From: Candidatus Blackburnbacteria bacterium
GTDB lineage: Bacteria > Patescibacteriota > Microgenomatia > UBA8517 > UBA10165
Reading direction: 5' to 3'
Length of the DNA stretch: 64,000 bases
Assembly: GCA_016183565.1 (NCBI GenBank)
Contig: JACPEJ010000001.1
Span: 550,479-614,478, forward strand
Part shown: positions 11,560 through 63,639 of the stretch, one piece after another
Layout of the letters: each line of letters starts with the position of its first letter
How positions within the stretch are numbered: the first letter of the stretch is position 1
The notes under the pieces: generated by a model
What the model was told of the DNA's origin: nothing
What the model saw: only the letters and a program-made list of their open reading frames with translations
Databases searched by the model: none
Translations under genes and position numbers: made by a program

Positions 11560-11637
11560 TTCAGGTAATCGCCGTAAATCGAGCGAGGTTTGATGTGGGA
11601 TTCTCACTTACTGTTAGACCAGAGGTGCCAACCTAAT

Positions 11638-41606: not shown

Positions 41607-42443
41607 ATGAAAAAGAATACCTCACTGGCAATTTTTGAGAACTTTAAGATACGCCGTGTTTATGTTGAAAAAACCGAGACATGGTATTTCTCGGTAGTGG
41701 ATATTATTCATGCATTAGATGTAAGTTCTGATGCTAGGAATTATTGGAAAGTATTAAAAAGCAATTTGAGAAAAGAAGGAAGTGAGGTGGTTACAAAAAT
41801 TAACCAACTGAAAATGACAGCCTCTGATGGAAAAAGCTATAAGACAGATGCCACTAACACAGAAACCATCCTTCGCCTTATCCAATCTGTTCCCTCCAAA
41901 AAAGCAGAACCCATAAAACTCTGGCTTGCAAAAGTTGGCTATGAACGTATGCAGGAAATGACTGATCCGGAAAAGGCTCTCAACCGCTCAAGAGAATATT
42001 GGCAAAAGCAAGGCCGAAGTGAAAAGTGGATACAGCAGCGGATGATGAGTCAGGAAACACGAAATAAGCTAACGGACTATTGGAGTGGGCATGGGGTCAA
42101 AAAAGACCAGGAATTTGCTATTCTTACCAATATTATTCATCAGGAGTGGTCTGATCTGTCAGTCAAAGATCACAAAAATTTGAAAGGGTTAAAGACCCAG
42201 AATCTTAGAGATCATATGAGCGAAGCTGAACTAATTTTTACTGCCTTGGCCGAACTTTCTACTCGGCAAATCGCCGAACGCGTCCGGGCAGAAGGGTTTG
42301 ATCAGAATAAAATTCCAGCCAAAAAGGGTGGGAAGATTGCCAAAGATGCCAGAATGGCACTTGAAGAAAAAACAGGGAAATCAGTAATCACCGGAGAAAA
42401 TTTCTTGCCTCACTCAAAAAAAGAAAAGGCGAAGTTTAAATAA
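41607..42443 (+). CDS. Bro-N domain protein (DinD/phage antirepressor-like)
   Basis: The N-terminal AIFENFKIRRVYVEKTETWYFSVVDIIHAL resembles the Bro-N fold. 278 aa. A frameshifted paralog lies at 42857-43431. Confidence 0.55.
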   Translation: MKKNTSLAIFENFKIRRVYVEKTETWYFSVVDIIHALDVSSDARNYWKVLKSNLRKEGSEVVTKINQLKMTASDGKSYKTDATNTETILRLIQSVPSKKAEPIKLWLAKVGYERMQEMTDPEKALNRSREYWQKQGRSEKWIQQRMMSQETRNKLTDYWSGHGVKKDQEFAILTNIIHQEWSDLSVKDHKNLKGLKTQNLRDHMSEAELIFTALAELSTRQIAERVRAEGFDQNKIPAKKGGKIAKDARMALEEKTGKSVITGENFLPHSKKEKAKFK

Positions 42444-42856: not shown

Positions 42857-43431
42857 TTATTTCTTCAGTAACTTTCTACCCTTCTTCTTGGGTAAATAAT
42901 TTTGTGCAGTTATTACTTTTCTTCCAGTTTCTTTTTCCAAATTAGATCTAGCATCCCCGGCAATTTTACCACCACGTTTTGAGACTTGTTTGTTTTTCTC
43001 AAAACCTTGAGGATGTTCTGTTTTGGTAATTTCTGTGGTGGCTGCTTCACCAAGCTGAGAGAATAAAAGCTCCAGATCGTTCATATGATCTCGCAGATTT
43101 TCCCTCCTAAATCTTTTTATACTGCGATGGAGTAACGCCAAATGTTGCTCTGGATAATTCGGAAAATTCCCTCAGTATTGGCGCAATTCATCTTCTGTTT
43201 ACCACCGCTGGTTTCTATTGCAAGGGTATGTACAATTTGTACCCACCCCTTAGAGAGCTCTGGGTCACGAATTCTCATACGCTGGATATATTGCTTTGAG
43301 TCACTTGAGTCAATCAGTGCTAAAACTACATCCTCAACTACAAACCACCACTCATTTTTATGTATAGTCTTTCTTATTTTTCTATTTCGAAAGATAGCTA
43401 TTTTAGTTGTTTGTACTGTTTCTTGATTCAT
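42857..43431 (-). pseudogene. Split/frameshifted Bro-N (DinD-like) paralog
   Basis: ORF 43117..43431 is a Bro-N domain (IFRNRKIRKTIHKNEWWFVVEDVVLALI). ORF 42857..43141 matches the C-terminal part of 41607..42443 (NLRDHM..ELLF..L.E....EI.....GF..NK...K.GGKIA.DAR..LE..TG..VIT..N.LP). The two halves lie in different frames and overlap by 25 nt. Confidence 0.55.
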
Positions 43432-43463: not shown

Positions 43464-43513
43464 CTTAATTAAAAATTGTTATTGCACTTTATTGTGCAAA
43501 GAAAACCCGCAAC
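43464..43513 (-). promoter_or_regulatory. Conserved promoter/operator-like block (cttaattaaaaat.gttattg.actttatt.t.ca..aaaacccg)
   Basis: Near-identical to 61939-61988, with a partial copy at 63475-63489. All three lie just upstream of minus-strand genes (Bro-N fragment, Xis-like HTH, brnT). Confidence 0.45.
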
Positions 43514-56339: not shown

Positions 56340-57117
56340 TTCCACCTGGGAGGTGGAATACGTTGACACCTCGGTAAAAGTTTTCTAAACTGGGTTTATA
56401 TATGCCGGGAAGACAGATACCATTAGTAACCGGTCAAATGTATCACGTTTTCAATCGGGGTCTAGATAACCGTTCTACTTTTACTGATAAACGGGAGTAT
56501 GTGCGTGCCGACATGGCAATAAGGTTTTATCGATTCGTCAATCCTCCTCTTAAGCTTTCTAGGTTTTTGGTTTTGCCAAAAGACGACAGGATGAAGCTCT
56601 TGCAGGAGACAGAGGCTCGACGAGAAAAACTTGTAGATATTCTCTGCTATTGTTTTATGCCAAACCATTTCCACTTACTTCTTCGTCAGCTTAGAGATGG
56701 TGGCATTTCGAAGTTTTTAGCTAATTATCAGAACAGTTATACTCGTTATTTTAATACTAAGCACGAAAGGTTAGGTACTTTGTTTCTTGATCAATTTAAG
56801 GCGGTGAGGGTGCAAAACGAGGAACAAATGGTTCATGTTAGCCGATATATTCACCTCAATCCGTATACCTCTTATGTAACAGAGGATTTGTTAAGCTTGC
56901 GTAGTTATAGATGGTCTTCTTTTAGGGAGTACCTGGGAATAGCTTCAGGAAATATTTGCGATACAGAAATAGTTCTGTCGTTTTTTAAAAATGAAGGTGA
57001 GTATGAGAAGTTTGTGTTTGATAATGCCGCTTACCAGAGAGAGCTTGACAGGATTAAGCATCTAGTTTTTGAGTAAAATACCGACGTGCAAAGCTGTTCC
57101 ACCTCCCAGGTGGAAGG
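56340..57117 (+). mobile_element. Second RAYT (IS200-like TnpA) unit flanked by inverted copies of one REP hairpin
   Basis: CDS 56402..57076 (HUH motif PNHFHLLLRQL). The 5' flank ttccacctgggaggtggaa (56340-56358) is the reverse complement of the 3' flank ttccacctcccaggtggaa (57098-57116). Confidence 0.75.
56402..57076 (+). CDS. IS200-like Y1 (HUH) transposase, REP-associated (RAYT), paralog of 14824..15483
   Basis: 224 aa. MPGRQIPLVTGQMYHVFNRG / CFMPNHFHLL mirrors MPGRLTPLITNETYHIFNRG / CLMPNHFHLL in the first copy. Confidence 0.8.
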   Translation: MPGRQIPLVTGQMYHVFNRGLDNRSTFTDKREYVRADMAIRFYRFVNPPLKLSRFLVLPKDDRMKLLQETEARREKLVDILCYCFMPNHFHLLLRQLRDGGISKFLANYQNSYTRYFNTKHERLGTLFLDQFKAVRVQNEEQMVHVSRYIHLNPYTSYVTEDLLSLRSYRWSSFREYLGIASGNICDTEIVLSFFKNEGEYEKFVFDNAAYQRELDRIKHLVFE

Positions 57118-58180: not shown

Positions 58181-58254
58181 GCGCCCTTAGCTCAATTGGA
58201 TAGAGTGCGTGGCTTCGGACCATGAGGTTAGAGGTTCGACTCCTCTAGGGCGCG
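58181..58254 (+). tRNA. tRNA-Arg (TCG)
   Basis: GCGCCCTTAGCTCAATTGGATAGAGTGCGTGGCTTCGGACCATG... has anticodon loop CTTCGGA, T-loop TTCGACT and acceptor GCGCCCT/AGGGCGC. Confidence 0.75.
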
Positions 58255-58259
58255 CACAC

Positions 58260-58332
58260 GGGCCGCTAGCTCAATTGGTAGAGCACCGCCCTCTTAAGGC
58301 GGGTGTTCAGGGTTCGAGTCCCTGGCGGCTCA
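58260..58332 (+). tRNA. tRNA-Lys (CTT)
   Basis: GGGCCGCTAGCTCAATTGGTAGAGCACCGCCCTCTTAAGGCGG... has anticodon loop CTCTTAA and T-loop TTCGAGT. It lies 5 nt after tRNA-Arg. Confidence 0.8.
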
Positions 58333-58409
58333 CCGAGTCTGACTCGGCTTTGCCCGAGGAAGACGAGGTAGGCAAGTTTGACTTGCCACTCAAAATTTAT
58401 ATTTTATCG

Positions 58410-58736
58410 ATGATCAAAATCAAGTCAGACTTGATCAAAACGTCAGACGTTTTGTTGAATAATAAATACTACATCTACGTTCTTTTTAGCATAAAAGACC
58501 ACAAGTTTTATGTTGGTTTTAGTACTAATCTTAAAAATCGTTTGAGAGAACACGCCAGCGGATTAGTTGTCTCTACCCGTAATCGAAGACCACTGAAGCT
58601 CATTCATTACGAATACTTTATTGATAAAGCAGATGCTAAAGCAAGAGAAGTTTTTTTGAAAAGCGGGTTTGGAAGAAGCCAGCTTAAGGAAGCATTAAAA
58701 AGAACACTGGTAAAACTCGGCTATAAGAGCTCATAA
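58410..58736 (+). CDS. Stand-alone GIY-YIG nuclease-family protein (YhbQ/UvrC-N-like)
   Basis: KYYIYVLFSIKDHKFYVGFSTNLKNRLREH is a GIY-YIG core. The start is taken at the internal Met because the long ORF 58209.. overlaps two tRNAs. Confidence 0.65.
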   Translation: MIKIKSDLIKTSDVLLNNKYYIYVLFSIKDHKFYVGFSTNLKNRLREHASGLVVSTRNRRPLKLIHYEYFIDKADAKAREVFLKSGFGRSQLKEALKRTLVKLGYKSS

Positions 58737-58741
58737 CCAAG

Positions 58742-58766
58742 AGACCGAGCGGGACTCGAACTGATG
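58742..58766 (-). other. tRNA 3'-end-like fragment (T-loop + acceptor 3' strand)
   Basis: The reverse complement reads CAGTTCGAGTCCCGCTCGGTCTC with no matching 5' half. Possible att remnant at an island boundary. Confidence 0.3.
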
Positions 58767-58785
58767 ATTGGATTGTTGTATCAAC

Positions 58786-58953
58786 CTTCTTTATTTTCCA
58801 AGTCCGGATCGCCCATATCCTCTTCCCAGTTGTCTCCATAAAAGTATTGCATTACTCCGCAACATAACTGATATACAAAAGTTTGTATTCCTTTTAATTC
58901 TTCATCAGATGCATTAGGATAATACTTTCTAATTACATCTAAGGGTAACATCT
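58786..58953 (-). CDS. Small hypothetical protein (55 aa) with strong RBS
   Basis: The reverse complement has GGAGGTGA 6 nt before the ATG. Translation: MLPLDVIRKYYPNASDEELKGIQTFVYQLCCGVMQYFYGDNWEEDMGDPDLENKEG. Not in the supplied ORF track (<60 aa). Confidence 0.3.
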
Positions 58954-59192
58954 AAAATCATCACCTCCCATCCATGACCAGAGTAACTCTATAAGGTAAT
59001 CAAATGATTAGTTGAAACAAAGGAGGTAAAAGACTTCAACAGCTTTTCGAAAAAGCGGGCATTAGGGGTAGGGAATGGTAGCCTGAAGAAAAATGATTGG
59101 TGACAAGTCAAAATGTTTCGTTTTTGGACTGTCTCTCAGTCTTTTTTAGGATCGTCCCTCAAGATATTTTTATGCCAAGGAAAGCATTAGCA

Positions 59193-59726
59193 TCATCTCT
59201 CACCACCAGCCATAGAATCCGTTCTACCGTCATTAAATTTAATATCTATAGTGCTTCTCCCTTTACCGAAGGAAATAAGGCCAATTGATTCTATTCCTGT
59301 TTTTGGCTTCAAAATTGGTTGATCTGATAAAACTTCGGTTAAGATATCTACAAAAGCTGACCAACCATTATCTTCAAATACACTTGTAGGTAAAGAATAT
59401 CTATCAAATAACTCTCTAAGTTCCTTCTTAAGTGCATTCATATTTAAAAAATCAAATATCCCATCGTCCTTGATTGGATGATGAGATGATGCAGGATAAC
59501 ACTCATCAATTTTATCTATTATCTCTTTTATTACTTCATGATTTTCTTTTGTTGTGTGTACTGTCCAATTACAATAAAATCTGGCCAATAGAAAATCTGG
59601 ATTGTTATCTCTATCTAACAATTTCCTAATCTCTACTAGAAGATACACGACATGACATTCCTCTTCAAATATAGGATATTTTGTTAAAAACTTATCTAGT
59701 TTTTCTATAATTTCTTCTCTTGCCAT
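59193..59726 (-). CDS. Hypothetical protein (operon gene 4)
   Basis: 177 aa with a 13-nt gap to the upstream gene. No motif. Confidence 0.4.
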   Translation of the reverse strand: MAREEIIEKLDKFLTKYPIFEEECHVVYLLVEIRKLLDRDNNPDFLLARFYCNWTVHTTKENHEVIKEIIDKIDECYPASSHHPIKDDGIFDFLNMNALKKELRELFDRYSLPTSVFEDNGWSAFVDILTEVLSDQPILKPKTGIESIGLISFGKGRSTIDIKFNDGRTDSMAGGER

Positions 59727-59739
59727 AGATTTTACTTAA

Positions 59740-60447
59740 TTAAACTGTAGAGACTTCGGAATTTATAACTATCTCAACTTCAGTTTCACTTTTAGTAAGT
59801 CTCTTTAAAAAATTAATAACTTCCGCCAAATTCATGGGATCCAATATCAAATTTGTATCTAGCTGAATAGTCAGATATACAATTCTCCGTATAGACTTAT
59901 CCGTCTGTAAATAATTTAGGAGCTGGTCTTTTGCTGACGTTATAGTGTTTGTAATTTTATTCTTTAATGCCTCAGACATTCCAGTTGCTACTTCCTGTAA
60001 GATTAATTCTGAACCTGAAAACATTCGCCTGCTGTTTTCTAGAATATAATTTCTTTCATCATCTGAAAAACCAATAGTTTTAGATTCTAATAAAACCGCT
60101 ACTTTCTGGGATTTACTGCCTTCTATATCTGGTGTTCTAACTGTGGTTTCTGGAATAAATTTTACATCTTCATACCCTTCATCAAGTAGAAAGCAAAATC
60201 CCATTACCTCTGATAAGGTATCAAAAAATTGAGCCCAACCCCTGACTGGATGTTTTTTTAATCTGCTTTGTAGTTTCTGTTTAATGAATTCCCAGTTGTC
60301 TGGATCTAATCTTTGTAAAGACTTTTCATAAGGCTCGAATGCCTGAGGAGCTTGTTTCAATCCCTCAGGAAGACGATTCTGGATATCATCAAGTGAAGTT
60401 GAGGGTGGAAGATTATTACAAAATTCTAGTAAACGCTTAAATTCCAT
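59740..60447 (-). CDS. Hypothetical protein (operon gene 3)
   Basis: 235 aa with a 25-nt gap to the upstream gene. No motif. Confidence 0.4.
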   Translation of the reverse strand: MEFKRLLEFCNNLPPSTSLDDIQNRLPEGLKQAPQAFEPYEKSLQRLDPDNWEFIKQKLQSRLKKHPVRGWAQFFDTLSEVMGFCFLLDEGYEDVKFIPETTVRTPDIEGSKSQKVAVLLESKTIGFSDDERNYILENSRRMFSGSELILQEVATGMSEALKNKITNTITSAKDQLLNYLQTDKSIRRIVYLTIQLDTNLILDPMNLAEVINFLKRLTKSETEVEIVINSEVSTV

Positions 60448-60472
60448 AAAAAACTTTGTCTAAATTATACAA

Positions 60473-61105
60473 TCATTCTTCTTTTTTGATCCAAGGTTCG
60501 GTAAAAGCAACCTGCCAATCATCTGCAACCGGTGTAAGTGAGCTATAACCAGATTGAGTAAGAAGTAATTGGTATTTTATCACGAGTGCTTCTATCTGAT
60601 TCATCGCATCTTTAATTTTTGTATAACTAATATTGGACGGAAACTTGCCAGTATTATCTTTATGTCCAACATTCTTATTTCTGAATTGTTTAATTTCCTT
60701 AGCAGCTCCCTCAAGATTTTTAATATCCTCACTTACTAACTTTGAATCTAAAAAATCTCCTTTGCCAAATTTTTCTTCGAACTCTTCTGATGATAAGACA
60801 TTGGGACCCTGAGATACCCACCAATTTTTGGTAATAAGTTTGTGATTACTTAGTAAATCCTTAAGTAGATTAATCAGGCTAAGTGAGTCGCTATCCGTAT
60901 CAATCTGGTGCCATATCTTTGAAATAATAAAAAATGTGTAGTTTAATTTGTAGTGCTCCCAAAAGGAACCTATATGTTGTTTCACAAAATCATTTTCTTT
61001 GATAATTTTCTCTAACTCATCAGCATGATATTTACTGTAAAGTAAATCTTCAACGTCACCAGTAATTTCCTCTATCTCTTTTTGCCATTTCTGTATCTTG
61101 TCCAT
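60473..61105 (-). CDS. Hypothetical protein with R-x5-H (HEPN-like) motif (operon gene 2)
   Basis: KEIKQFRNKNVGHKD gives R-x5-H in a predicted helical region. 210 aa. Starts 2 nt after the upstream stop. Confidence 0.4.
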   Translation of the reverse strand: MDKIQKWQKEIEEITGDVEDLLYSKYHADELEKIIKENDFVKQHIGSFWEHYKLNYTFFIISKIWHQIDTDSDSLSLINLLKDLLSNHKLITKNWWVSQGPNVLSSEEFEEKFGKGDFLDSKLVSEDIKNLEGAAKEIKQFRNKNVGHKDNTGKFPSNISYTKIKDAMNQIEALVIKYQLLLTQSGYSSLTPVADDWQVAFTEPWIKKEE

Positions 61106-61107
61106 AA

Positions 61108-61677
61108 TTAATTTAATTTCTCTCTTAATATGCGCATCTGTTCATAATCTAAACTGACAATCTGGTCATATCTCTTTTTAAAAAGTCCTCTTAACACTTC
61201 GCTATTATCTAATTCCTTCTCAAAGTCCTTTAATGCCTTCTTCGTGTATTCATAGAAATCTGGTACATTTAGAAAAAGTATTTCTTCACTCTGGCCGAGC
61301 ACTTTTCTTAAAAAATAATTATCCGCAAAATTCATATCGATAGCTGATGCTTTAGGGGACCATTGATGTGCCAAACCGTGTCTAAAAATATAATAAAACT
61401 GTTTTGAAAACTCTTTGTCCTTAAACTTATCGTAGTATTTAGAAAAGTATCTAACAAAGAAATCCGCAACAGTATTAGAGTTAGAGTCTGTCCCTTTAAA
61501 GTAACCTGAGCATAATTCAATTACAGTGAAAATTATTAGACATGAGGTGAAGTTTAAACCGCCCTTAAAACGAGTATCGCCAGACTGTTTTAACTTAGAT
61601 ACCAATAAACAACTATCTAAGTCATCACAGAAAAATTCCCAGATTTGCTGTTTAAATACATCATTATGCAATGCCAT
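61108..61677 (-). CDS. Hypothetical protein with R-x4-H (HEPN-like) motif (operon gene 1)
   Basis: YYIFRHGLAHQWSPK gives R-x4-H. 189 aa. Confidence 0.4.
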   Translation of the reverse strand: MALHNDVFKQQIWEFFCDDLDSCLLVSKLKQSGDTRFKGGLNFTSCLIIFTVIELCSGYFKGTDSNSNTVADFFVRYFSKYYDKFKDKEFSKQFYYIFRHGLAHQWSPKASAIDMNFADNYFLRKVLGQSEEILFLNVPDFYEYTKKALKDFEKELDNSEVLRGLFKKRYDQIVSLDYEQMRILREKLN

Positions 61678-61740
61678 ATTGATTCACTTCTATCGTCTTA
61701 ATTTACTCCGGCATTAGGCCGTAGAGTCTATAAACATAAT

Positions 61741-61938
61741 TTATATCCTTGTGATCAGTTTAATAATATCTTCTCTTCGGTATCGTCTTTCTCCAACTCC
61801 TTTTTTATTCCCCACCCGAATTGCTTTTAATTTTCCACTATTATCCCACCTTCTTAGTGTTGTAGGAACGACTCCTAGTATTTTTGCTACTTGGTTAATA
61901 TTTAAAAGTCTTGGCAATCTTATCATATTTTCTGCCAT
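61741..61938 (-). CDS. Excisionase/AlpA-family helix-turn-helix DNA-binding protein
   Basis: 65 aa. LLNINQVAKILGVVPTTLRRWDNSGKLKAIRVG is a MerR-like/Xis-type HTH. Confidence 0.6.
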   Translation of the reverse strand: MAENMIRLPRLLNINQVAKILGVVPTTLRRWDNSGKLKAIRVGNKKGVGERRYRREDIIKLITRI

Positions 61939-61988
61939 CTTAATTAAAAATAGTTATTGTACTTTATTATACAGAAAAAACCCGTACC
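61939..61988 (-). promoter_or_regulatory. Conserved promoter/operator-like block (copy 2)
   Basis: cttaattaaaaatagttattgtactttattatacagaaaaaacccgtacc vs 43464-43513 cttaattaaaaattgttattgcactttattgtgcaaagaaaacccgcaac. Confidence 0.45.
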
Positions 61989-62131
61989 GAGCTATGTTTA
62001 AAAGGCGATAGACAATAAAGAAAAATGGGTTAAGATTTAATTTTAGGAGTTTTTGAAGCTAATTCTGGTTGTAACCACCATATTAAATCTGGTAAACTAC
62101 TCATTGTAAGGAATTCCTGCGAGAATTCGCG

Positions 62132-62200
62132 CAGTCTGTGCAATATCCCGTGAGGATCACAAGTTAACAATTGTTAAAAATAGATGAAAGAAGTTAACAG
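62132..62200 (+). promoter_or_regulatory. Conserved ~70-bp block with near-palindromic GTTAACAATTGTTAA site upstream of a plus-strand gene (copy 1)
   Basis: cagtctgtgcaa...caagttaacaattgttaaaaatagatgaaagaagttaacag. The second copy is at 63561-63629 (gttaacagttgttaac). Confidence 0.5.
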
Positions 62201-62214
62201 AAAACATTAATATT

Positions 62215-62706
62215 ATGTCAATGATTCAACATTATAAACAGGTAACTCAAAACAAAATACTGGAGATAGATAAAAACACTTCTATCATTCCTAAAATCCT
62301 TCAAGACAATGAAAGCTATCCACAACTTAATATCGACAAATCTTGGGATGGAATTCATTTTCTACTAACTGGAAAAGCTACTGGAGATAAAGTTGATCAA
62401 TCTAATCCTCTAGAGTGGGTTATAGCAGGATGGGGTGAACAGGGACCAGAAGTTGGTTACGGACCTTCTCGTGTTGTAGCACCCAAAGAAGTTACACAAC
62501 TTGCACATATTCTGTCTAAACTCAAAGATGATGATTTTAAAAAAAGATTTGATCCAGTAAAAATGAATGACGTTGGAATTTATCCCGATGGAATTTGGGA
62601 TGAAGAAAATATTTTAGATTGGTTGGTAGACAATTTTCATCAAGTTAAGGATTTTTACATAGATGCAGCTAAAAAGGGTAATGCAGTTTTGATTTGGACT
62701 GATTAA
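62215..62706 (+). CDS. Hypothetical protein (YfbM/DUF1877-like)
   Basis: 163 aa. The WDGIHFLLTG-containing N-terminus is reminiscent of DUF1877. Low confidence. Confidence 0.35.
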   Translation: MSMIQHYKQVTQNKILEIDKNTSIIPKILQDNESYPQLNIDKSWDGIHFLLTGKATGDKVDQSNPLEWVIAGWGEQGPEVGYGPSRVVAPKEVTQLAHILSKLKDDDFKKRFDPVKMNDVGIYPDGIWDEENILDWLVDNFHQVKDFYIDAAKKGNAVLIWTD

Positions 62707-62882: not shown

Positions 62883-63149
62883 TTAGACTCTCTGATTTAC
62901 TACGTAATAATCAATGAGCCTTCTAATCATTGCTTGATAGGAAGCTCCATGTTTTTTAGCAGCACTTTTAAAAAACTCTAAGCTTTTTTGAGAAAGTGTT
63001 AAAGTTACCTTTGTCCTCTTTTCTTTAAATATAAGATCATCTGGACTTGGCAAGAAATTTTCTATGACTCTTGCATTAATTGGTTCATCTTTGTACACGA
63101 TTTTTTTCTTCATAGATTTTTTTACCCTTTCTCCAATAGCCCGCACCAA
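62883..63149 (-). CDS. brnA: BrnA-type antitoxin (ribbon-helix-helix-like, type II TA)
   Basis: KVTLTLSQKSLEFFKSAAKKHGASYQAMIRRLIDYYV matches the BrnA C-terminal region. Overlaps the toxin gene. The start is possibly at the internal MKKKIVYKDEP. Confidence 0.65.
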   Translation of the reverse strand: MVRAIGERVKKSMKKKIVYKDEPINARVIENFLPSPDDLIFKEKRTKVTLTLSQKSLEFFKSAAKKHGASYQAMIRRLIDYYVVNQRV

Positions 63150-63372
63150 TTATCCTAATGCGGTTTTTTCTATATGTGAAACGGACAGTTAAAACACCTC
63201 CTTTCACTTTTCCGAAACAGTAGAATCTTTTTTCCTTTTGACTATGCTCTAGATCTTCAGCGATTACCTGACTTGGGTCAGCAAACGCGTATTGTGCTGT
63301 TTCAAAATTGACTCCGTGCTTTCTTAACTTCTCAGTATTTTTATCCTCATCCCACTCAAAACTTGTATTCAT
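63085..63372 (-). CDS. brnT: BrnT-type toxin (DUF497 RNase, type II TA)
   Basis: FEWDEDKNTEKLRKHGVNFETAQYAFADP...RIIGAGYW matches the BrnT/DUF497 signature. Confidence 0.7.
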   Translation of the reverse strand: MNTSFEWDEDKNTEKLRKHGVNFETAQYAFADPSQVIAEDLEHSQKEKRFYCFGKVKGGVLTVRFTYRKNRIRIIGAGYWRKGKKIYEEKNRVQR

Positions 63373-63560
63373 AAATATATTACCATACTGCCATACTTTT
63401 TACCATACACAAAATATGAGTTATTAATCAATATATTCATCATAACAAATCTGCAAAAGTTAAAAGGAGTTGGTGTACTTTATTGTGCATCTCTTAGACC
63501 AAATGTATAAACAAATTCCGAGTTTAGGTCGTCAGACAGGAATAAATCGATAAACTCATT

Positions 63561-63629
63561 CAGTCTGTGCAAGGTAGTAACGGGGTCGCAAGTTAACAGT
63601 TGTTAACAATAGATGAAAGAAATTAATAA
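63561..63629 (+). promoter_or_regulatory. Conserved ~70-bp block with near-palindromic GTTAACAGTTGTTAAC site (copy 2)
   Basis: Aligns with 62132-62200 across cagtctgtgcaa...caagttaaca.ttgttaa.aatagatgaaagaa.ttaa. Lies immediately upstream of the ORF starting at 63640. Confidence 0.5.
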
Positions 63630-63639
63630 AAAATTAGTA

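Follow-up and report, generated by a model that had tools for sequence, protein, structure and literature searches.

The locus analysed here lies in a stretch of 64,000 nucleotides, the window in the following, from a genome of Candidatus Blackburnbacteria (CPR/Microgenomates). Its core is a block of five co-oriented genes on the minus strand (59193-61938), which encode a small HTH protein of 65 residues and, behind it, proteins of 189, 210, 235 and 177 residues, here called A, B, C and D (Table 1). The gaps between them, in this order, are 63, 2, 25 and 13 nt, so that the open reading frames confirm the gene array on which the original prediction of a new abortive-infection or toxin module had been built.

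Table 1. Features of the block and of its surroundings (window coordinates).
Feature	Position	Strand	Description
HTH gene	61741..61938	(-)	65 aa; HTH_17/MerR-type small DNA-binding protein
Protein A gene	61108..61677	(-)	189 aa; HEPN-fold, unclassified family; predicted metal-independent RNase (R99, H104, E55)
Protein B gene	60473..61105	(-)	210 aa; AbiU2-family HEPN, R142-x5-H148 motif
Protein C gene	59740..60447	(-)	235 aa; predicted PD-(D/E)xK (restriction-endonuclease-like) nuclease, unclassified family
Protein D gene	59193..59726	(-)	177 aa; family without recognisable fold relative
tRNA-Arg	58181-58255		beside block
tRNA-Lys	58260-58334		beside block
GIY-YIG domain	in 58410-58736		beside block
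tRNA T-loop/3'-end-like fragment	58741..58761	(-)	downstream edge of conserved block
56-aa ORF	58781..58951	(-)	downstream of D, within conserved block
24-codon ORF MSSLPDLIWWLQPELASKTPKIKS	62030..62104	(-)	upstream edge of conserved block
Promoter/operator block	61939..61984	(-)	directly 5' of HTH ATG; TATAAT box and TGTA-N8-TACA dyad
Second promoter-block copy	43464..43509	(-)	46 nt; directly upstream of split Bro-N pseudogene
Split Bro-N pseudogene	43117-43431 and 42857-43141		Pfam Bro-N, 30.2 bits
Partial third promoter-block copy	63460..63489	(-)	30 nt; upstream of brnT
brnT	63085-63372		Pfam BrnT, 83.7 bits

Among the adjacent gene pairs of the window, as delimited by crude ORF calling, only 28% are co-directional with a gap of at most 60 nt. 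Three of the four junctions in the block fall within this limit and the fourth has 63 nt; given the window baseline, such a tight run of five genes is unlikely to arise by chance (about 0.28^4 = 0.006). Tight gene packing is a general property of CPR genomes and the spacing is therefore a weak argument in either direction.

The surroundings bear out the earlier description of a tRNA-adjacent island. Genes for tRNA-Arg and tRNA-Lys, the only RNAs detected in an Rfam search, lie beside the block, together with a GIY-YIG domain and a fragment resembling the T-loop and 3' end of a tRNA, which occurs once in the window, where chance would give 0 matches. The GC content is 0.30-0.36 (about 0.32) across positions 59000-62000, compared to about 0.39-0.46 (about 0.42) in the flanks, and Pfam searches identified mobile-element and toxin genes nearby (BrnT/BrnA, Bro-N, a Y1 transposase).

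The sole other copy of the block is found on a related contig, L007, with 87.6% nucleotide identity over 3363 bp. The conserved segment starts at the ATG of a 24-codon ORF, which shows four synonymous and three non-synonymous differences in its 24 codons and is possibly a leader or small peptide, and ends within the tRNA fragment, possibly the relic of an attachment site. It includes a 56-aa ORF with 69% amino acid identity to its L007 counterpart; neither of these ORFs had a match in Pfam. In L007, the uvrA region is 5.5 kb from the block, whereas the corresponding region of the window (11.7-14.6 kb) is about 47 kb away, showing that the block occupies different genomic positions in the two genomes. 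No integrase or recombinase adjoins it in the window (54-64 kb) or in L007, nor does a replication or transfer gene in either. Integrons are recognized by attC sites of about 57-141 nt between promoterless cassettes and by an intI integrase. We rejected an integron cassette array, for which gaps of 2, 13, 25 and 63 nt are too short; also, no inverted-repeat family was found between the genes of the block, which thus lack the attC pattern.

The HTH protein, which is 95% identical in L007, matches the Pfam families HTH_17 (44.9 bits, cutoff 27) and MerR_1 (33 bits) as well as the PADLOC model mad1 (E=2.6e-13), and is probably the transcriptional regulator of the block. It had been called Xis-type. 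As a fold-level label this is adequate, since the protein belongs to the HTH_17/MerR/excisionase-like class, but we discarded an actual excisionase (Xis/AlpA) identity: BldC and excisionase models remain under their cutoffs (TIGR01764 with 23.7 against 28.8 bits) and a cognate integrase is absent nearby.

Directly upstream of the HTH gene, a segment that is 100% identical in L007 over about 45 nt has the sequence features of a promoter and is putatively that of the HTH gene. As noticed originally, it is reused at two further mobile-element-type genes, with a copy of 87% identity upstream of the Bro-N pseudogene and a partial one upstream of brnT, whose 80% identity is weak and could partly be accounted for by AT-rich composition. 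The longest local repeat (51 nt, 62154-62204 and 63583-63633) was also considered as the HTH promoter and rejected, as it belongs upstream of two plus-strand genes, outside the block common with L007. A scan for consensus promoters and terminators performed no better than on shuffled sequence.

When proteins A to D were scanned for the pattern R-x4-6-H, the sole matches were RHGLAH at residue 99 of A and RNKNVGH at residue 142 of B, the R-x4-H and R-x5-H motifs of the original prediction. A single chance match to this pattern in a protein of 200 residues would be unremarkable. In A, R99 and H104 are near-invariant, with a conservation of at least 90% among 38 homologues, and R99 is followed by H or N. 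The structure model of A (pLDDT 93.5) has HEPN domains as its first structural matches and shows their all-α, four-helix up-and-down core, with R99 and H104 at the C-terminal end of helix 3 (residues 88-105). Position 55 (VIE/VID), located in the helix 42-61, is E or D in all full-length aligned sequences and corresponds to the conserved acidic residue in helix 2 of HEPN domains; the usual HEPN form, E-x3-[KR], is not obvious at this site. In published descriptions of HEPN domains, helix 3 ends with the R-x4-6-H motif, in which the arginine is followed by a polar N, D or H (PMC3710099), and because R99, H104 and E55 match this description in placement and features, we assign A to the HEPN fold. 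The structural check proposed for the HEPN-like nature of A thus supports it, and at the level of the model this description holds; A would then be a metal-independent endoribonuclease.

Curated HEPN models all fail to match A: it has no Pfam HEPN family at E<1, the 38 members of its family have none at E<0.1, and a HEPN match is likewise absent from NCBIfam, PADLOC and PHROGs. A therefore represents an unclassified family within the HEPN fold. Profile comparisons of A with B and with D yielded no relationship, and a comparison of the A family with a 202-residue protein from a further locus (L100) was colinear, with superposed RxGLAH motifs, and not significant (E=0.07, probability <1%). Sequence searches against PDB chains returned only noise for both A and B, and tblastn searches of PLSDB plasmids zero matches. 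Viral contigs contain no relatives of A and just three, distant ones (24-27%) of D, from which we conclude that A and D are not phage genes.

Protein B is recognized by the Pfam family HEPN_AbiU2 (PF18734, 34.6 bits, cutoff 26.8, E=1.7e-8), with residues 42-188 aligned to positions 35-180 of the 193 in the profile, a region that contains the motif R142-N-K-N-V-G-H148. Its L007 orthologue is 87% identical and belongs to the same family, with a match flagged as weak. Judged by its sequence, B falls into an abortive-infection HEPN family that already has a name, so that both proteins predicted to be HEPN-like are so, and it may, like A, act as a metal-independent endoribonuclease. The eponymous Lactococcus lactis gene, abiU2, has been classified as HEPN and the setting of the family described as 'R-M operons' (PMC3710099).

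C and D had been reported to contain no recognisable motif, which for C turned out to be incorrect. Across 64 diverse members of its family, the conserved residues are E80, P106-D107, E121-x-K123, S128, Q175 and D197. No variation occurs at E80 and K123, and P106, D107 and E121 are conserved to at least 90%. The resulting pattern, E80...P-D107...E121-x-K123, resembles PD-(D/E)xK; a hydrophobic strand precedes ExK and, by inspection, the motif is flanked by alternating hydrophobic strand-like and helix-like segments compatible with that fold. This suggests that C is a PD-(D/E)xK nuclease and, as such, a candidate Mg-dependent DNase acting on foreign DNA. Sub-threshold Pfam hits of single family members were to Hjc (E=7e-4), RE_NgoBV (0.027) and Tox-REase-7 (0.038). 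Searches of PDB chain sequences with C and with its family profile gave noise only, and hhalign comparisons with an Mrr-like protein and a small ECK-motif protein, both putatively PD-(D/E)xK, were negative.

Las1, Hjc and tRNA-processing enzymes are examples of housekeeping enzymes with HEPN or PD-(D/E)xK folds, as would be expected if the genes of the block were ordinary housekeeping genes for RNA and DNA processing, adjacent by chance. We consider this hardly credible in view of their patchy distribution, with the small families almost exclusively in metagenomic CPR contigs, of their atypical GC content and variable, defence-type neighbourhoods, and of the different genomic location of the block in its nearest relative.

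The model of protein D has a helical N-terminal part and a four-stranded sheet at the C-terminus, for which no structural relative was found; searches of PDB chains with D and its family profile yielded only noise. With neither an R-x4-6-H motif nor a fold match, D was dismissed as a HEPN protein. Its family is associated with defence islands of CPR bacteria, in which it covers at least 394 loci from metagenomes, and includes one named member from a Nanoarchaeota (DPANN) archaeon. D is co-directional with, and within 60 nt of, the gene upstream in 49 of 75 loci, against a baseline of 44%. Many of these upstream genes encode nucleases or nuclease-ATPases. The proteins that D follows include Old/AriA/AbiLi-like ATPases, HNH, NOV_C, TnsA-like, DUF3644 and DUF5655 proteins, but overall they are extremely heterogeneous, with proteases, DnaJ and helicases among them, and too diverse for a fixed partner of D. 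Most likely, D is another stand-alone or accessory defence-island gene.

To assess co-occurrence, we ran HMM searches on all ORFs of 96 related loci. The neighbourhoods sampled comprise about 10 around A and 5 around C; none had B at its centre. All five genes were found together only in L007; of the remaining loci, 80 contained D without A, B or C, 10 contained A alone and 4 C alone. Homologues of A (50-75% identity), C (49-58%) and D (up to 76%) sit in wholly different gene arrays. The neighbours of the A homologues include Shedu SduA, a type I R-M system and, among other small genes, one for a DUF5677 protein; around the C homologues there are serine recombinases, a helicase and an Mrr-like gene. 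In some arrays, two further families, a 234-aa KRNxxLH protein and a 199-aa protein, pair with A; in others, their partner is D.

These results bear on the proposal of a novel four-gene module and, more broadly, on a reading in which the HTH protein and A to D form one undescribed multi-component abortive-infection system with interdependent parts. The operon-like packing of the five genes would agree with such a system, as would the conservation of the entire block, including the promoter, at a different position of a second genome. None of A to D had a hit in PADLOC-DB 2.0 at E<1 and only the HTH protein resembles a catalogued component, the generic HTH of MADS, so that a catalogued multi-gene defence system was excluded and the earlier view that this is no named system stands. 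But the only co-occurrence is in a near-identical copy, which reflects recent common ancestry rather than selection for the combination, the HEPN family of B is already known, from a lactococcal gene for abortive infection, and every more divergent locus examined has the families without each other. We thus judge a single system to be decidedly improbable. Co-conservation in other genomes had been named at the outset as a test of the module, and its outcome, with L007 alone, essentially speaks against it.

A weaker form of coupling would divide the block into two modules under the HTH regulator: A and B as a heteromeric HEPN RNase with a composite site from two subunits, and C as a nuclease with D as its inhibitor, sensor or adaptor. 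For A and B, one may point to the mere 2 nt between the stop codon of A and the start codon of B, and to the HEPN family Bxe_C0808, listed as 'in operon with AbiU2' (Table 1 of PMC3710099), a precedent for HEPN-AbiU2 pairs that the A-B pair resembles by gene arrangement alone, as a second HEPN gene beside an AbiU2 gene. Unlike in that arrangement, the other homologues of A have no AbiU2 neighbour. They do adjoin proteins with R-[NS]-x3-H motifs (234 aa, KRNYALH; 445 aa, ARSEIVHG), but these have no Pfam hits and chance matches to R-x4-6-H are frequent; also, profile comparison detected no relationship between A and B. For C and D, the tendency of D to follow closely behind nuclease genes would fit, but its upstream partners vary too widely, C homologues lack a D neighbour, and among the D loci only L007 has C as neighbour. 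Overall, we regard two modules as rather unlikely.

A more far-reaching variant would make the D family a new immunity component, a sensor, inhibitor or adaptor shared by many effectors, alongside a heteromeric HEPN RNase of A and B. D would then usually be the last gene of tight operons and plug into effectors as varied as Old/PARIS/AbiL-like ATPases, HNH, PD-(D/E)xK and HEPN proteins. We find this doubtful.

Finally, the block could be toxin-type cargo by which an integrated mobile element ensures its own retention (addiction or stabilisation), in the way of the BrnT/BrnA pair nearby, and not be directed against phages. The tRNA fragment at its edge, the low GC content, the nearby BrnTA, Bro-N and transposase genes, the promoter segment common to the Bro-N and brnT loci, and the serine recombinases or resolvases close to D and C homologues are all in line with this. 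Yet the block lacks recognisable antitoxins and, in the window as in L007, adjoining integrase, recombinase, replication and transfer genes, and elsewhere the neighbours of its families are chiefly defence genes (R-M, Shedu, Old/PARIS-like ATPases), making such a role improbable. It would overlap with a defence-island origin and be compatible with it.

The explanation we favour, with moderate confidence, is that the block is a horizontally acquired defence-island mosaic of autonomous, independently mobile conflict genes rather than one multi-subunit system. Horizontal acquisition is supported by the low GC content, the shifted position in L007, the tRNA fragment at the edge and the nearby BrnT/BrnA, Bro-N and Y1 transposase genes, modularity by the 96-locus survey, in which the families mostly occur without each other. 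The acquired segment would run from about 62104 to about 58751 in the window, a length of about 3.4 kb, with four conflict genes strung behind one small MerR/Xis-class regulator and co-transcribed from the conserved TATAAT/dyad promoter, whose TGTA-N8-TACA dyad the HTH protein may bind. A composite active site built by a homodimer is established for other HEPN enzymes; A and B probably each act in this way through their R-x4-6-H motifs and could cut host or phage RNA upon infection or stress, with growth arrest as in abortive infection or under a toxin. C would cut foreign DNA. As a counterpoint, four consecutive very short junctions, that between A and B above all, agree with a single operon and leave room for a functional link between the genes. 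For the two RNases, which are predicted to be toxic, neither an antitoxin nor an immunity partner was identified, so that some of the neighbouring genes could regulate each other.

Defence and toxin genes of CPR bacteria are poorly catalogued, as most of these proteins escape existing models. The locus neither reveals a new mechanism nor opens a long-standing question, but it adds three families that are candidates for inclusion in catalogues of defence systems and for assays in heterologous hosts: A, a structurally supported HEPN family unrecognised by profile libraries; C, a large family (602 clusters at 50% identity) with a PD-(D/E)xK-type motif; and D, an orphan-fold family accompanying nuclease and ATPase defence genes. 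It also illustrates how small single genes are reshuffled into the tight, operon-like arrays of reduced genomes, whose compact packing calls for caution before a multi-component system is inferred.

Among known systems, A is set apart from the minimal HEPN toxins of HEPN-MNT pairs (8xdj, 5yep, 7ae2) and the HI0074/YutE type by a sequence identity of 5-11%, greater length, a three-stranded β insertion (residues 111-137) between helices 3 and 4, and an extra C-terminal helix. A HEPN-MNT type II toxin-antitoxin system was ruled out, as the five proteins and the flanking ORFs scanned lack a nucleotidyltransferase domain. B shares with AbiU2-family proteins the match to the family model, the R-N-x4-H motif and a defence-type setting, but the match is very divergent, the host is a CPR bacterium, and in place of a Sel1-repeat or R-M partner it has a different, unclassified HEPN protein as upstream neighbour. 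C keeps the E...(P)D...(D/E)xK pattern of Hjc, Mrr and Shedu SduA; unlike these, it matches no curated family and no PDB sequence significantly. As a whole, the block is best compared to defence islands, in which unrelated immunity genes cluster and are exchanged independently of each other (PMC3632139). It differs from typical ones in that its families are almost all absent from current defence databases and in its unusual compactness, as its five genes take up 2.75 kb, with junctions of 2-63 nt and, putatively, one common promoter. Like them, it is low in GC and has a tRNA-adjacent setting rich in mobile elements, and its modules recur elsewhere beside R-M, Shedu, Old/PARIS-like and HNH genes in changing combinations.

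The block lies in an assembly of Candidatus Blackburnbacteria (CPR, Microgenomates) and comprises a gene for a small helix-turn-helix regulator (HTH) followed by genes for four proteins, A to D. The five minus-strand ORFs coincide exactly with those of the original prediction, and the surroundings it listed are likewise present: tRNA-Arg, tRNA-Lys, the GIY-YIG gene, the tRNA fragment, BrnT/BrnA and the split Bro-N gene. The hypothetical proteins HYU80_03180 and HYU80_03175, encoded on a 686-kb contig, have the same sequences as C and D, respectively (100% identity). The junctions along HTH-A-B-C-D measure 63, 2, 25 and 13 nt; this packing is operon-like and tighter than is typical of the genome, because co-directional genes at most 60 nt apart make up just 28% of the neighbouring pairs in the window (crude ORF calling). 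GC content over the block is 0.30-0.36, compared to 0.39-0.46 upstream.

Features of the block and its surroundings (window positions)
Feature	Position	Strand	Length or remark
24-codon ORF	62030-62104	minus	~90 nt upstream of the HTH gene
Promoter block, HTH gene	61939-61984		dyad at 61953-61968
HTH	61741-61938	minus	65 aa
A	61108-61677	minus	189 aa
B	60473-61105	minus	210 aa
C	59740-60447	minus	235 aa
D	59193-59726	minus	177 aa
tRNA T-loop/3'-end fragment	58741-58761	minus	unique in window
Split Bro-N gene	43117-43431 + 42857-43141	minus	frameshifted pseudogene
Promoter-block copy, Bro-N pseudogene	43464-43509		dyad at 43478-43493
Intact Bro-N gene	41607-42443	plus	278 aa
Weaker promoter-block copy, brnT	63460-63489		dyad at 63469-63484
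51-nt direct repeat	62154-62204 + 63583-63633		86% identity
DUF1877 gene	62215-62706	plus	
Signal-peptide ORF	63639 to window end	plus	

The regulator matches the Pfam families HTH_17 and MerR_1, so that its assignment to the HTH class holds, but its description as Xis-type does not: resemblance to excisionases, as to BldC and MADS MAD1 HTH proteins, stays below their curated cutoffs, and no integrase is adjacent to the gene. From these profile matches we read HTH as a probable small transcriptional regulator rather than an excisionase. Its promoter block is, as had been claimed, duplicated ahead of the Bro-N pseudogene (87% over 46 nt), with a weaker copy ahead of brnT. The dyad of this block is TGTA-N8-TACA ahead of the HTH gene; in the Bro-N copy both halves change symmetrically, to TGCA-N8-TGCA, which fits a putative palindromic protein-binding site, and the brnT copy is mixed (TGCA-N8-TACA). 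The intact Bro-N gene faces its frameshifted minus-strand paralogue (42857-43431) across ~400 nt, and of the two only the pseudogene has the promoter block in common with the HTH gene.

A separate 51-nt repeat, containing the palindrome GTTAACAATTGTTAAC, was considered as the HTH promoter and rejected, since it lies outside the conserved block and directly precedes two plus-strand genes, the DUF1877 gene and the signal-peptide ORF. The repeat pair looks like an operator common to both genes. Read on the minus strand, each copy runs on into a similar short peptide-like frame (LLTCDP..LHRL.EF..FL).

Protein B passes the gathering threshold of Pfam HEPN_AbiU2 (34.6 bits, threshold 26.8) and has the motif R142-N-K-N-V-G-H148. 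AbiU2, an abortive-infection protein from lactococci, has been classed as HEPN (PMC3710099); judged by its profile match, B is a divergent member of this known Abi HEPN family. Protein A, in contrast to B, yielded no profile match in Pfam, NCBIfam, PADLOC or PHROGs, either alone or via 38 members of its family. This family is small, with 63 proteins that are nearly all metagenomic (one of the named members is from Woesebacteria), and has an almost invariant motif, FR[HN]GL[SA]HQWSPK. In HEPN domains the R-x4-6-H motif sits 'at the end of helix-3', N, D or H usually comes directly after the arginine, and helix 2 contributes an acidic residue (PMC3710099). The confident AlphaFold model of A (pLDDT 93.5) has R99-H104 at the end of helix 88-105, with H or N after the arginine, E/D55 within helix 42-61, and a three-stranded β-insertion ahead of the next helix. 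Motif and helix placement match the published description, and no profile recognises the protein; A is therefore, as modelled, a new family inside the HEPN fold.

The close family of C has 21 members; a profile search enlarged it to 602 clusters (50% identity), most of which are stand-alone proteins ~230-250 aa long. Across 64 diverse members, E80, P106-D107, E121-x-K123, S128, Q175 and D197 are conserved, the classic PD-(D/E)xK pattern. Searches with C against curated families and PDB sequences gave no significant match; three family members matched Hjc, RE_NgoBV and Tox-REase-7 weakly. Motif conservation thus points to C as a predicted nuclease, probably of a new PD-(D/E)xK family. Homologues of C with 49-55% identity also occur in MAGs labelled 'uncultured Gammaproteobacteria' (L013-L015), one of them a 1.6-Mb chromosome, which points to transfer across phyla or else to bins with a wrong label. 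Close to the L013 homologue are two adenylate/guanylate-cyclase-like genes and, after them, one for a small membrane protein, a setting reminiscent of cyclic-nucleotide defence systems.

Protein D is an orphan. It has 67 word-index homologues and occurs in at least 394 metagenome loci, the named members belonging to CPR bacteria (Microgenomates, Parcubacteria, Pacebacteria) and one Nanoarchaeota archaeon. Residues K9, Y28, V31, E32, R34, K35, W54 and H57 are invariant, and the model (pLDDT 86) combines a helical N-terminal part with a four-stranded sheet. In 49 of 75 loci D is co-directional with the upstream gene and at most 60 nt from it, against a baseline of 44% in the same loci. These upstream genes are diverse: Old/AriA/AbiLi/PtuA/GajA-like ATPases, HNH, NOV_C, TnsA-like, DUF3644 and DUF5655 proteins, helicases, a MORC-type ATPase and proteases. 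We consider it unlikely that D serves as a common accessory component for numerous nuclease or ATPase effectors of CPR/DPANN. In six loci (L023, L063, L068, L069, L070, L084) a D homologue directly follows an AAA_15/AAA_21 ATPase of 488-613 aa, and PADLOC scored the five ATPases scanned among these as Old, AriA (PARIS), AbiLi or PtuA; D therefore occupies the usual partner-gene slot of those two-gene systems.

In profile searches of every ORF of 96 loci, the families of HTH, A, B, C and D occurred together only in L007, a related contig. This contig and window 62104-58751 align colinearly (87.6% nucleotide identity), and the alignment takes in the promoter as well as short ORFs upstream (24 codons) and downstream (56 aa). 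Its copy of the block adjoins a NUDIX gene and lies 5.5 kb from uvrA, compared to ~47 kb in the window, so the block has moved or was independently acquired. The resemblance between the two copies is too close to show selection for the gene combination. The common stretch starts exactly at the ATG of the 24-codon ORF (MSSLPDLIWWLQPELASKTPKIKS), which is retained with four synonymous and three non-synonymous changes and may be a real micro-protein or leader peptide. At the other end homology breaks inside the tRNA-like T-loop (L007 12915-12936, where L007 ends), the window continuing with GTTCGAGTCCCGCTCGGTCTC and L007 with GTTCGAATCCCAAGAGG, as would be expected had the block entered two distinct tRNA genes by recombination, each time in the T-loop region. 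Elsewhere in the window, a REP-like hairpin repeat (...GTTCCACTCCCGATGTGGAA...) occurs in five copies of 39 nt (at 11618, 20895, 29007, 52517 and 57079), the last abutting a gene (56402-57076) that encodes a Y1_Tnp (IS200-like) domain, the layout expected of a REP-associated tyrosine transposase.

The more distant loci, by their gene content, argue against an obligate system. Homologues of A with 50-75% identity adjoin Shedu SduA plus a radical-SAM pair, a type I R-M operon, or a DUF5677 gene and further small genes, and no B, C or D was found near them. Homologues of C with 49-58% identity likewise occur without the other families; their neighbours are serine recombinases, a helicase and an Mrr-like gene. 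Two more small families, both unannotated, turn up beside either A or D, depending on the array. One, 231-234 aa long with KRN(Y/H)(A/S)LH in its C-terminal part, may be another unclassified HEPN family and accompanies A in L001 (4973-5677) and L004 (3246-3950) and D in L101 (4204-4899); the other, of 199-200 aa, accompanies A in L004 (3947-4546) and L010 and D in L100 (169-771). The chief competing reading, a heteromeric A-B HEPN enzyme plus a C-D pair, would suit the 2-nt A-B junction, and has a precedent in Bxe_C0808 (Paraburkholderia xenovorans LB400), a HEPN family described as 'in operon with AbiU2' (PMC3710099), but both pairings are absent from other genomes and we consider this arrangement unlikely. 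Overall, small conflict genes seem to be drawn from a common pool and shuffled between tight arrays, as in a defence island, and we favour a mosaic of autonomous modules. The original prediction was thus right about HEPN, through the Pfam match of B and the model and motif of A, but the coherent novel four-gene system it proposed is not supported, as the families are reshuffled elsewhere.

In such a mosaic, one transcript would start from the conserved TATAAT/dyad promoter, with the HTH protein probably binding the dyad; A and B, as predicted HEPN endoribonucleases, would arrest growth upon infection or stress, and C would act as a DNase. None of A to D matched the PADLOC 2.0 models. As a whole, the locus adds one more example to a familiar category, islands of defence or toxin genes, and does not represent a new kind of system.
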